Source: Candidatus Woesearchaeota archaeon
Lineage (GTDB): Archaea; Nanobdellota; Nanobdellia; Woesearchaeales; 0-14-0-80-44-23
DNA length: 64,000 nucleotides
Direction: 5' to 3'
NCBI GenBank assembly: GCA_038874135.1
Contig: JAVZCZ010000001.1
Span: 1-64,000 of the forward strand
Shown here piece after piece: positions 1,145 to 54,041 of the stretch (position 1 is the stretch's first letter; the number at the start of each line of letters is the position of its first letter). The notes below the pieces were generated by a model. It was not told the origin of the DNA, did no database searches, and saw only the letters and a list, made by a program, of their open reading frames with translations. The position numbers and the translations under genes are program-made.

Positions 1145-1453
1145 TTAGATGAGCTCAACCTTCTTTGCTCTCCTTCCATACCTCTGAACAGTACTCTTCT
1201 TGCACACTGTGCACTCGTATCTCAAATCTGTTTTCTTAGTCTGCTTTTTTCCAGTCATTCGCCAAGAGGTTATTGCAGGCTTGGAATACCTTCCGTGACC
1301 GCCCTGGCCGCGCGCCCTGCCCCTCTTCTTAGCCCTATACTTTGAGCCGTATGTTAGGGCACTTGGCTGTTTCTTCTTTGACTGATAAACCCTGTGCGGA
1401 GTGTGCTTCTTGCAGTTCGGGCAATACCTGTTGATTGTCTTTGGAATTTTCAT
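1145..1453 (-). CDS. rpl44e: 50S ribosomal protein eL42 (L44e)
   Basis: MKIPKTINRYCPNCKKHTPH...KKTDLRYECTVCKK zinc-ribbon signature. Confidence 0.95.
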   Translation of the reverse strand: MKIPKTINRYCPNCKKHTPHRVYQSKKKQPSALTYGSKYRAKKRGRARGQGGHGRYSKPAITSWRMTGKKQTKKTDLRYECTVCKKSTVQRYGRRAKKVELI

Positions 1454-31764: not shown

Positions 31765-33081
31765 TTATAGTTCTTGCACGCTGAGCACTCTGACCTTTAC
31801 ATCAGATGGCCTTGCCAGCACGCTGCTTCCAACCAGGATTTTCACATTTGCGTTGTCAGCCAGTCTTATGAGCTCCTTGTCTATGGGCCCGTCCAGCACT
31901 ATGGATTCAACTCCTGAGTTTATGTTTTTCAGGGTTCCGTACAGTTCTGCTACTGGAACCTTGCCCAGTATGTTTAGGCGCTCGTCAAATATGCAGGCTC
32001 CCCTTGTTCCTATCAGCTCTTCGCTCACCTTCTTGAAAACTTCTATCTGCTCCTGAGTGGGCTTTTCAAAATCCCTTCTGGAGCCCTGCTGGGGTCTCTC
32101 CCTGAGTTCCTGTCTCGGCTCGGGCCTCTTCTGTTCCCTTTCAGGCGTTCTGCCGTTCTGGATTCTTCTGACCTGCTGGTCGTGGTGCTGCTGGTAGAAT
32201 TCCTTTCTCTGCTCCTGCCTCTGGTGCTGCTGGTATTCCTGGTGTCCGTTTTCGCTTTCCAGCTTTATCTGTTCAACTGCTACCCTGCCCCTCAGGGCTT
32301 TTAGTATCTCTTTCTGGGTGAGCTCTTCTACTTCCTTTCCGTCAGGAGCCTTTGCAACATAGTCTATGTCGGTTACAGCCATCATCGCCTTCGTGATTAT
32401 GTCCCCGCCCCTGTCCCCGTCTACAAAGAGGGTGACGGTCTTCTGCCTGCAAAGCTCAGCTACATCTTCCGGGATGTTGGTGCCGTTGATTCCTATCACA
32501 TTCTTTATTCCGTGCTTTAGAAGGTTTAGAACATCTGCCCTGCCCTCTACTACTATTATCTCTTCAGAGTCGGCTATTGCAGGTCCTGCCGGGCTTCTGC
32601 TCTTTCCGTACTCCTGTACTTCCATCATCTTTATTGATTCTGCAACCTCTTGTGCCAGCTCTTGAGAGTCGGGCATTGTTGTCTTCATCCACGCCTGCAG
32701 GAGCTCCTTCGCCCTTTCCAGGATTTGCTTTCTCTTTATTATTCTGACATCTTCTATCTTATCAACTGTTATCTTTGCCTCGCAGGGGCCTATTCTCTGT
32801 ATTACTTCCAGGGCTGCGGCTACTATTGCTGTTTCAGCCATGTCCAGGGATGAGGGTATCTGTATTATTCCCGTGGTCTTTCCGCCTTTGGTGTCGTAGC
32901 TTACCTCTATCCTGCCTATTCTTCCTGAGCGTTGGAGCTCTCTCAGTTCAAGTTCAGTTCCGAGAAGGCCTTCTGTCTGTCCGAATATTGCTCCTATGAC
33001 ATCTGGCCTTTCTACAACTCCTTCTATTGAGATTGTAGCGTGTATTATGTATTTTGCTGATATCGGGCTTATTTTTCCCAT
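31765..33081 (-). CDS. dnaG: Archaeal DnaG (Toprim; exosome-associated)
   Basis: [45 protein letters not shown]; Gln-rich linker. Confidence 0.96.
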
Positions 33082-33119
33082 CTTAATCCCTCCTCTGAGT
33101 AAGTTTTTTGTTTATGATT

Positions 33120-33291
33120 TTTTCAAGCGGTTTTAGAACAAGCGATTTTTCACTTGTGGGAATGCGTGTTCGGAATTAGTTCAGAAATTCTAAAAGGATT
33201 TCGCTCCTTTCAGTCCTGAAATTTTTTCTAATTCCTATTTTGCATCCCTCAAATGAAAGTGTGAATGTGAAGCTTGTTCCAAACTTGAAAA
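33120..33291 (-). ncRNA. ~172-nt imperfect rod-shaped hairpin RNA of unknown class
   Basis: Nested stems UUUUCAAG/CUUGAAAA, UUUGGAACAAGC/GCUUGUUCUAAA, UUUCAUUUG/CAAGUGAAA, GGGA/UCCC, GGAAUUAG/CUAAUUCC, CUGAAAGGA/UCCUUUUAG; G-U pairs mainly on the minus strand. Confidence 0.55.
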
Positions 33292-33292
33292 T

Positions 33293-33373
33293 GCTTGTGG
33301 CCCGTTTTACTAACCCCCGGGTTCATTGCAGGGCTTTCGCCGTGTGCTCCCGCGGGTACTCTCGTAACGGGCC
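33293..33373 (-). ncRNA. Archaeal box H/ACA pseudouridylation guide RNA (predicted target 23S H69 Psi1917, E. coli numbering)
   Basis: P1 GGCCCGUU/AACGGGCC followed directly by ACA; pocket GAGAGU + UAGU; ACCC/GGGU upper stem; Kt-7-like K-turn; GAAA tetraloop; own TATA at 33398-33405. Confidence 0.8.
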
Positions 33374-33474
33374 TTGAGTTTAGTTTTTCTGTTCTTGTAT
33401 TTAAACCTTTGCGTTTGTTTCAACTTTAAAATATATTTTGTAGAAAATTCTTTTTTGGTACTCTGCTGTTCTTC

Positions 33475-46327: not shown

Positions 46328-46450
46328 TCCCCTCCCCCGGACTTGAACCAGGAACCTTCCGGTGACGGCTGTCCCGATTTCATTCATGCTCTCTCGGAGT
46401 TGTCTTCGGGAATCTACAGCCGGACGCTCTAACCATTGAGCTAGGAGGGG
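46328..46450 (-). tRNA. tRNA-Tyr(GTA) with 50-nt intron at 37/38 (46364-46413)
   Basis: CCCCTCC/GGAGGGG-A (C1-G72); TCCGG-CTGTAG[intron]A-CCGGA; GGTTCAAGTCC. Confidence 0.9.
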
Positions 46451-53804: not shown

Positions 53805-54041
53805 TTACTCTGGGGATATTGTTGTGATGGTGTCCCCTCTCAGGAATATGACTCCCATCTTTTTTGTTATCTCGCCGTTAACCCTTTCTTCTGCTTCTTC
53901 CAGAACTGTATTGATGTGAATGTCAAATGCTGAGAGCTTTCCAACATACTGCTTGCCATTCTTCAGCTCAACTATTACTCTCTTGTTGCGTGCCTTGTTC
54001 AACGCATCTAAAGGTCTTGAATTTTCCATTTTCGATTTCAC
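53805..54041 (-). CDS. Sm-like protein (SmAP/Lsm)
   Basis: RPLDAL, VELKNG...GKLSAFDIHIN, LRGD; sm-rpl37e pairing. Confidence 0.94.
   Translation of the reverse strand: MKSKMENSRPLDALNKARNKRVIVELKNGKQYVGKLSAFDIHINTVLEEAEERVNGEITKKMGVIFLRGDTITTISPE

Follow-up and report, generated by a model that had tools for sequence, protein, structure and literature searches.

The stretch of DNA examined here, called the window below, is the first 64 kb of the genome of a Candidatus Woesearchaeota archaeon, a single contig of 909,956 bp with 41% G+C that is 99.4% complete. On its minus strand, between an Lhr helicase gene upstream and a gene for a 438-aa Toprim protein of the archaeal DnaG type downstream (31765-33081), lies a 78-nt hairpin with ACA at its 3' end (window 33373-33296). 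An initial annotation, made from the sequence alone, had proposed that this hairpin is an archaeal box H/ACA guide RNA for pseudouridylation of helix 69 (H69) of 23S rRNA, and all of the coordinates that it gave are correct (TATA box, 33405-33398; GAGAGU guide, 33363-33358; UAGU guide, 33312-33309; ACA, 33298-33296). We conclude that the element is very probably a single-hairpin archaeal box H/ACA guide RNA of ~80-95 nt, with its own TATA promoter, for the H69 loop. We infer that it is expressed in this organism and assembled into a ribonucleoprotein (RNP), and we infer likewise which uridine or uridines it would convert.

An H/ACA hairpin with its own promoter upstream of dnaG

Transcription of the hairpin is predicted to start at A33375, A33374 or G33373. 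The TATA box, UUUAAAUA, recurs 22-25 nt before the GCCCG of the lower stem in relatives L007, L009, L011, L038 and L068. CAAA(G/C)R, which resembles the purine-rich stretch of this genome (Table 1), stands before the TATA box in L007, L009, L011 and L068, which have a single hairpin. At the other end of the gene, U4-U5 runs lie 3-5 nt past ACA in L007, L009 and L011, which belong to the same family as this genome. Residues of the corresponding U-run in this genome also pair into the foot of a long hairpin formed by the spacer that follows.

The locus was the best match of a relaxed H/ACA descriptor run over all of the DNA of the genome outside open reading frames (ORFs). The free RNA has a fold energy of −38 kcal/mol (z = −4.5), and none of 200 shuffled sequences folded as well. 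The minimum-free-energy fold, in which G residues of the kink turn (K-turn) pair with CC, was dropped, being not conserved; the comparative structure is the one drawn in the initial annotation. In that structure GGA (33350-33348) stands opposite GAA (33324-33322), with the bulge AAU at 33327-33325 and a C-stem of GCA/UGC. The known K-turn Kt-7 is laid out as a C-stem, a 3-nt bulge and the pairs G·A, A·G and A·G, and the K-turn of this RNA matches that layout. It would thus be expected to bind L7Ae.

The structure covaries and the guide strands are constant

Homologues were collected by BLASTN from a dozen families of the order, and 12 of them were used to build a covariance model, R1. This genome is in the R1 seed alignment, and its own score of 95.1 bits is thus by construction. 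R1 found exactly one copy in 134 of the order's 151 genomes. In a phylum-wide sample of 151 genomes that included other orders, 141 had one copy. In alignment A3, which holds 96 homologues, 87% of the cells are paired and 21 of the 22 pairs show double-sided changes. The covariation score was 0.327, compared with 0.136 for shuffles (all 500 were beaten) and at most 0.059 when the pairing partners were slid. The conservation of the ACA and the K-turn in relatives, together with this covariation, bears out the proposal of an archaeal H/ACA guide.

Change and constancy are distributed over the hairpin in a definite pattern. In the lower stem, P1, GCCCG/CGGGC is nearly invariant, and the two top pairs covary (UA/AU/CG/GC) around a 2-nt bulge in the 3' strand. 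Since this bulge sets off the top P1 pair (U-A or C-G), the 3' guide consists of UAGU alone. The G·A and A·G positions of the K-turn are nearly invariant, while its C-stem and the apical stem covary. A GAAA cap, which the initial annotation had counted among the hallmarks, is present in this RNA, but it is not conserved among relatives. The stems vary and the pocket strands do not: ACGAGAGU and UAGU were invariant in the 12 sequences of the first alignment. Phylum-wide, the 3' guide is UAGU in ~86 of the 96 sequences, and the 5' guide GAGAGU is replaced by GAGAAU in other orders. One relative (L055:1477-1584, minus strand) has the 5' part of the hairpin partly duplicated in tandem, with ACAGCCCGUCACGAGAGUACCU occurring twice, ~34 nt apart.

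The box position of the 96 homologues reads ACA in 56, UCA in 14, AUA in 14 and CCA in 5. The PUA domain of Cbf5 also binds the 3' ends of tRNAs, which a CCA box would resemble. Both UCA and CCA deviate from the ANA consensus, and a CCA box variant is known from Pyrobaculum (PMC4652768).

Table 1. Features at the H/ACA guide RNA locus (window coordinates)
Feature	Position	Strand	Remarks
B recognition element (BRE)-like purine-rich stretch GCAAAGG	33406..33412	-	directly 5' of the TATA box; putative function
TATA box UUUAAAUA	33398..33405	-	24-nt spacer to the first G
H/ACA hairpin	33296..33373	-	fold z = −4.5; R1 95 bits, E = 3.5e-21 (seed member); 21/22 pairs covary (96 sequences)
Lower stem P1, 5' strand GGCCCGUU	33366..33373	-	pairs with 33299-33308
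5' pocket strand ACGAGAGU	33358..33365	-	GAGAGU (33363-33358) pairs with ACUCUC, E. coli 1919-1924, of H69
Upper (GA) stem, 5' strand ACCC-GCG	33351..33357	-	fold A, ACCC/GGGU (33313-33316); fold B, CCC/GGG (33316-33318)
K-turn module and apical stem-loop	33322..33350	-	GGA-GCA-CAC-GGC-GAAA-GCC-C-UGC-AAU-GAA; C-stem GCA-UGC, bulge AAU, cap GGC-GAAA-GCC
Upper stem, 3' strand CCC-GG-GGGU	33313..33321	-	GG (33317-33318) bulged in fold A, paired in fold B
3' guide UAGU	33309..33312	-	pairs with ACUA, E. coli 1913-1916, of H69
Lower stem P1, 3' strand AAAA-CGGGCC	33299..33308	-	two of the four A positions form a bulge in relatives
Box ACA	33296..33298	-	directly 3' of the lower stem
U-run UUUU	33288..33291	-	follows ACA and then AGCA; likely 3' end or terminator

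The guide matches H69 of the genome's own 23S rRNA

The two pocket strands predict a target of the form 5'-ACUA-U-N-ACUCUC-3'. The sole 23S rRNA gene of the genome (genome 125751-128673) has the H69 sequence GGGGGUAACUAUAACUCUCUUAAGGUAGC, within which the target stretch is GGGGGUAACUAUAACUCUCUUAAGG. This stretch reads ACUA-U-A-ACUCUC (genome 127705-127716, E. coli 1913-1924), exactly as the initial annotation had predicted from the bipartite guide, and it forms 10 Watson-Crick pairs with the pocket strands and leaves U-A unpaired. The strict motif ACUAUNACUCUC occurs twice on the two strands of the 910-kb genome, where 0.63 copies are expected, and one of the two lies in H69; the expectation for 5 kb of rRNA is 0.0017. 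H69 is the only strict Watson-Crick site among the stable RNAs of the genome.

The second strict match to ACUAUNACUCUC (window 53971-53982, plus strand) was judged to be due to chance. It is antisense to an Sm-like gene (78 aa, 53805-54041) and within a low-complexity ORF without a Pfam match. Its flanks are also H69-like (AACUAUUACUCUCUU).

The guide and its H69 were both recovered from 12 genomes, and the two change together. Nine genomes have A at guide position 16, and their H69 reads ...GGGAAUAACUAURAUUCUC; position 1920 is U there, and A1910 compensates for it in the stem of H69. The other three (this genome, another Woesearchaeote and Nanoarchaeum equitans) have G16, and their H69 has ACUCUC, with C1920. 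No genome was discordant between guide position 16 and H69 position 1920. On the sequence evidence, such co-variation is what pairing between two unlinked loci would predict.

Insertions of ~120-730 nt interrupt the match to 23S rRNA around H69 in four genomes (L137/L143 in G062, L141/L144 in G222, L139/L145 in G244 and L140/L146 in G171). The breaks lie 10-20 nt past the guide target and, in G244 and G171, also directly before ACUA. Introns of the rRNA, inserted in or beside the site of modification, are the probable explanation.

We assign the H69 loop as the target with high confidence. Within the loop, the canonical prediction for this genome is U1917, with possible conversion of U1915 as well; an exclusive assignment to U1917 is not established.

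Two registers of the upper stem

Three proteins that the initial annotation had expected for a guide RNP are encoded in the genome. Cbf5 is a 335-aa protein with DKCLD, TruB_N and PUA domains that scores 428 bits against the NCBIfam equivalog (cut-off, 242), and Nop10 (73 bits) and L7Ae (100 bits) also score above their cut-offs. In the proposed RNP, the PUA domain of Cbf5 would hold the lower stem and the ACA, L7Ae would sit on the K-turn, and Nop10 would bridge the two. Both pocket strands would pair with the flanks of the H69 loop, GAGAGU with ACUCUC (1919-1924) and UAGU with ACUA (1913-1916). U1917-A1918 would stay unpaired at the resulting three-way junction, 14 nt from ACA, and for this reason U1917 would be the residue isomerized to pseudouridine. 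The base of the upper stem could also slip to a second register that is equally conserved, in which GUUA would pair with UAAC (1911-1914) and U1915-A-U1917-A would be left unpaired.

The alignment contains both registers, which are mutually exclusive and which both covary. In fold A, ACCC pairs with GGGU, the GG is bulged out, and 3 bp more lead up to the K-turn; 14 nt separate the last ACCC/GGGU pair from ACA, and U1917-A1918 is unpaired. In fold B, CCC pairs with GGG, including the G residues of the bulge, to form a contiguous 6-bp stem under the K-turn, and GUUA (33311-33314) can pair with UAAC of H69. Across the 96 sequences, the fold A pair 20-61 is UA in 58 and CG in 19 and is mismatched in 15. 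The fold B pair 21-58 is CG in 77, UG in 8, AU in 4 and UA in 4, and the fold B pair 20-59 is UG in 51, CG in 32 and UA in 11.

The two registers place the loop at different distances from the box. Register A has a spacing of 14 nt in this genome and in 75 of the 96 homologues; in 16 others, including N. equitans, it is 12-13 nt, and register B there gives 14-15 nt. In fold B the spacing in this genome is 17 nt (16 nt if the count begins at the first guide base that is paired), with the two target uridines 17 and 19 nt away from ACA. The 4 + 3 + 3 = 10 stacked layers of fold A fit the 10-layer GA stem described by Toffano-Nioche et al. (PMC4652768). The initial annotation had the top of the pocket exactly 14 nt from ACA and U1917 as the target. 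That holds in fold A, but the covarying fold B gives the UNUN geometry, from which both residues become pseudouridine in Haloferax volcanii. Experiments have shown that stem-loop 2 (SL2) of the H. volcanii RNA sR-h45 makes both pseudouridines of H69 with the UNUN left unpaired (PMC7075261). Since the fold B geometry equals that of SL2, U1915 may be modified here too.

Relationship to known H/ACA RNAs

The closest published relative is the single H/ACA small RNA (sRNA) of N. equitans (339411-339574, 164 nt, 10,900 reads), which was described by Randau in 2012 as two hairpins joined by ACA, with its own TTTAAA box ~26 nt before the start, a T-stretch, and a mapped 3' end in the T-run 3 nt past ACA (PMC3491384). 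The sequence of that locus is identical, letter for letter, to the published sRNA. Within it, R1 matches 339493-339571 with 51.5 bits, which is stem 2, and the family was therefore already known and expressed. Stem 2 has in common with the RNA described here the CGAGAGU and GUUAGU pocket strands, the K-turn, the GCCCG/CGGGC lower stem and the ACA. The TTTAAA promoter and T-run of the N. equitans gene likewise have counterparts in the TATA box and U-run of this genome. The two differ in that the N. equitans RNA has two hairpins, whereas this genome and its family have the second hairpin only. The N. equitans upper stem also lacks the GG bulge, its register A spacing is 13 nt, and its gene is not beside dnaG.

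Most Woesearchaeota relatives have a two-hairpin gene with the H69 hairpin second (L008, L010, L012, L017, L018, L040-L047 and L056-L083). The first hairpin of these genes lies ~88 nt upstream of the one for H69; its pocket strands, AUGGGUCC and ACACUC, do not vary, its lower stem covaries, and it has a K-turn of its own and an ACA or UCA hinge. Motif searches and a model of this Woesearchaeota-type hairpin, R2, found no copy of it in this genome, in its family (G000-G003) or in N. equitans.

SL2 of H. volcanii sR-h45 is the 3' hairpin of a two-hairpin RNA, like the H69 hairpin of most relatives of this genome, and it also targets the H69 loop. The haloarchaeal H69 3' strand is ACGGUC, and the H. 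volcanii guide must therefore differ in sequence. Compared by reported geometry, SL2 has its targets 17 and 19 nt from ACA, as in fold B of this genome, and produces Ψ1940 and Ψ1942, equivalent to E. coli 1915 and 1917 (PMC7075261); this genome adds the canonical 14-nt UN register for U1917. The H/ACA sRNAs of Pyrococcus (Pab21, Pab35, Pab40 and others) have the same lower stem, pocket, GA stem with K-turn or K-loop, ANA box and spacing of 14-15 nt (PMC2377435), and the archaeal H/ACA families in Rfam have the same architecture as well.

Outside the archaea the same loop is modified by other means. Bacterial RluD, a protein-only enzyme that uses no guide RNA, makes the H69 pseudouridines 1911, 1915 and 1917. 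In yeast, the sites of snR191 are the two pseudouridines of the H69 loop. This RNA is a eukaryotic two-hairpin H/ACA small nucleolar RNA without a K-turn, with Nhp2 for L7Ae and a spacing of ~16 nt. It guides the most conserved rRNA pseudouridines, according to Badis et al. (2003) as cited in PMC2377435.

Rfam 15 has no family at 33296-33373, either by gathering score or at E ≤ 10. The initial annotation had called the RNA unannotated, which is right as far as Rfam goes, but the kind of RNA was known, with the N. equitans member published in 2012.

The linkage to dnaG

All 53 distinct relatives with a readable flank have a dnaG homologue downstream of the sRNA and on the same strand, so the adjacency to dnaG pointed out in the initial annotation extends well beyond this genome. 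The gap between the two is 91-756 nt, with a median of 224 nt. The linkage is real and old. In this genome the spacer between ACA and the dnaG start (window 33082-33295, minus strand) is 214 nt and folds into a long rod (−65 kcal/mol, z = −7.9). In at least 16 of the 53 relatives (loci L007-L085), GAACAAG and CUUGUUC enclose the spacer, and after them come GGAGG and the start of dnaG; the GAACAAG arm pairs with the CUUGUUC, which lies close to the ribosome-binding site of dnaG. A TATA-like YAUAAUCA stands directly past ACA in many relatives, ~24 nt before the conserved GAACAAG arm, and suggests that dnaG has its own promoter. The spacer looks like a conserved structured leader of dnaG, with dnaG probably having its own start at the foot of that leader, predicted to lie near GGAACAAG.

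The initial annotation had placed the guide at the 5' end of a transcript leading into dnaG. Given the positionally conserved TATA box of the sRNA, the U-run past ACA and the YAUAAUCA of relatives, the linkage does not show cotranscription, and a role of the guide RNA as leader or cotranscript of dnaG is not established.

Other structured RNA candidates

A scan of GC-rich islands outside ORFs, together with the relaxed descriptor, gave this RNA as the only convincing H/ACA candidate, a result that does not prove uniqueness. A GC-filtered H/ACA scan was discarded: its hits were mostly coding false positives, and it missed the true RNA because it demanded a 5-bp gapless P2.

Three further sequences came to our attention. 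Window 1254-1367 is a 114-nt island of at least 60% G+C outside long ORFs; it is neither tRNA nor rRNA, has no Rfam match and may be another structured RNA. On the minus strand at window 46328-46450, Rfam reports a tRNA of 123 nt (52.9 bits) that was unreported by ARAGORN and that probably contains an intron. Outside the window, the H/ACA descriptor scan found an identical 62-nt G+C-rich hairpin-like stretch twice, at C1:756313-756374 and C1:760493-760554, 4.2 kb apart.

Weighing the alternatives

Several observations weigh against the reading of this hairpin as a guide RNA for the H69 loop with U1917 as its target. Both guide helices are short (4 and 6 bp), and in other orders the 3' guide is sometimes UAAU, which makes one mismatch in register A. 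Alignment A3, from which the covariation was scored, was fitted to the R1 structure, and since the genomes are related, the independent events of guide/H69 co-variation are few. The sequencing runs that contain this DNA are only DNA runs, from one hot-spring metagenome study that is probably where the DNA came from, with no RNA run among them, and literature searches found no pseudouridine map for the phylum. Gar1 (Pfam PF04410), the fourth protein expected by the initial annotation, was undetected in this genome, where the best hit (E = 0.057) lies inside the Lhr helicase gene. In total it was found in none of 101 near-complete genomes of the phylum, this one and 100 others, by a search whose control recovered it in three of four archaea and missed Sulfolobus. 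Given the limited sensitivity that this miss implies, the protein may be missing or may have diverged beyond recognition by the search. In vitro, basal activity does not require Gar1 (PMC3608112), and literature searches found no paper on its absence. The remaining points concern the register. By nearest-neighbour energies, fold B has an advantage of ~5 kcal/mol over fold A in the free RNA, and more sequences have it paired, so that the 14-nt ruler may not describe the active state. In addition, fold A (7 bp plus the 2-nt GG bulge) breaks a rule derived from Pyrococcus, by which 5-6 bp separate the pocket from the K-turn above it and no more than one nucleotide of the upper stem is bulged (PMC2377435, PMC7991803); the six contiguous base pairs of fold B satisfy it.

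These last points favor a possible, if less probable, alternative in which the RNP is the same but fold B is the active conformer and U1915 is presented, either alone or first, with U1917 second. Such a view would also fit the retention of the fold B pairs in 94-95 of the 96 sequences, with AU/UA flips at pair 21-58. It would fit as well the 16 homologues, N. equitans among them, in which register B rather than register A has the usual distance to the box, and the register B spacing of this genome, which is that of the H. volcanii hairpin that makes both pseudouridines. The covariation of the fold A pair 20-61 is nevertheless unexplained by fold B. Fold A offers U1917 the canonical 14 nt and a classical UN junction in this genome and most homologues, and register B has only 4 bp on its 3' side before a G·G clash. 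A more elaborate proposal, which we regard as rather unlikely, is that the guide is bistable. Its upper stem would slip by 2-3 nt between two productive registers, presenting U1915 and then U1917, and it would be the only H/ACA guide in the genome, working in an RNP without a recognizable Gar1, with its linkage to dnaG by way of the conserved structured spacer hinting at expression coupled to that of an RNA-metabolism factor. It is the conservation of the GG bulge and the invariance of the closing A-U and C-G pairs that would permit such slipping.

Two other readings do away with H69 as the principal target of a guide RNP, and we hold both to be far less probable. The hairpin could be a cis-acting part of the dnaG transcript, a K-turn 5' leader that binds L7Ae or controls dnaG, with an incidental or secondary match to H69. 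The unbroken linkage and the structured spacer speak for this, as do the many relatives without any run of five or more T residues between the RNA and dnaG. It is very unlikely all the same: the stems covary around guide strands that stay constant, position 16 changes in step with H69 position 1920, the ACA/ANA box is conserved, and the YAUAAUCA of many relatives suggests a separate dnaG promoter. Moreover, the N. equitans orthologue lies not by dnaG but between the tyrosyl-tRNA synthetase gene and NEQ392, and it is a discrete, abundant sRNA. Alternatively, the guide could serve another RNA (16S rRNA, a tRNA or another 23S site). RNAsnoop proposed such targets, 23S U614 and 16S U796 and not H69, for stem 2 of the N. 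equitans orthologue (PMC3491384), and guides this short permit many wobble matches: we counted 133 genome-wide, against ~109 expected. We consider this extremely unlikely, since H69 is the sole strict site in any stable RNA of the genome, the guide co-varies with it, and its U1915 and U1917 are known H/ACA targets in H. volcanii.

Significance

The RNA at this locus is a single-hairpin orthologue of the published N. equitans RNA. What is new is the assignment of H69 as the target, a covariance model that spans the phylum, the co-variation of guide and target, and the pair of covarying registers. These leave the known picture of H/ACA RNPs as it is; their value is for annotation and comparison. 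With R1, a family that Rfam lacks has a covariance model, and the two registers make a natural test case for one H/ACA hairpin serving two neighbouring uridines. The H/ACA family of Nanoarchaeota and Woesearchaeota, whose published member had other assignments, gains a well-supported target in the H69 loop. Were this the only H/ACA guide of the genome, as in the bistable proposal outlined above, the H69 loop would be the sole reason for keeping all of the guide machinery. Since the guide is almost always kept in genomes of 0.5-1 Mb, pseudouridylation of this intersubunit bridge appears to be under strong selection despite extreme genome reduction.

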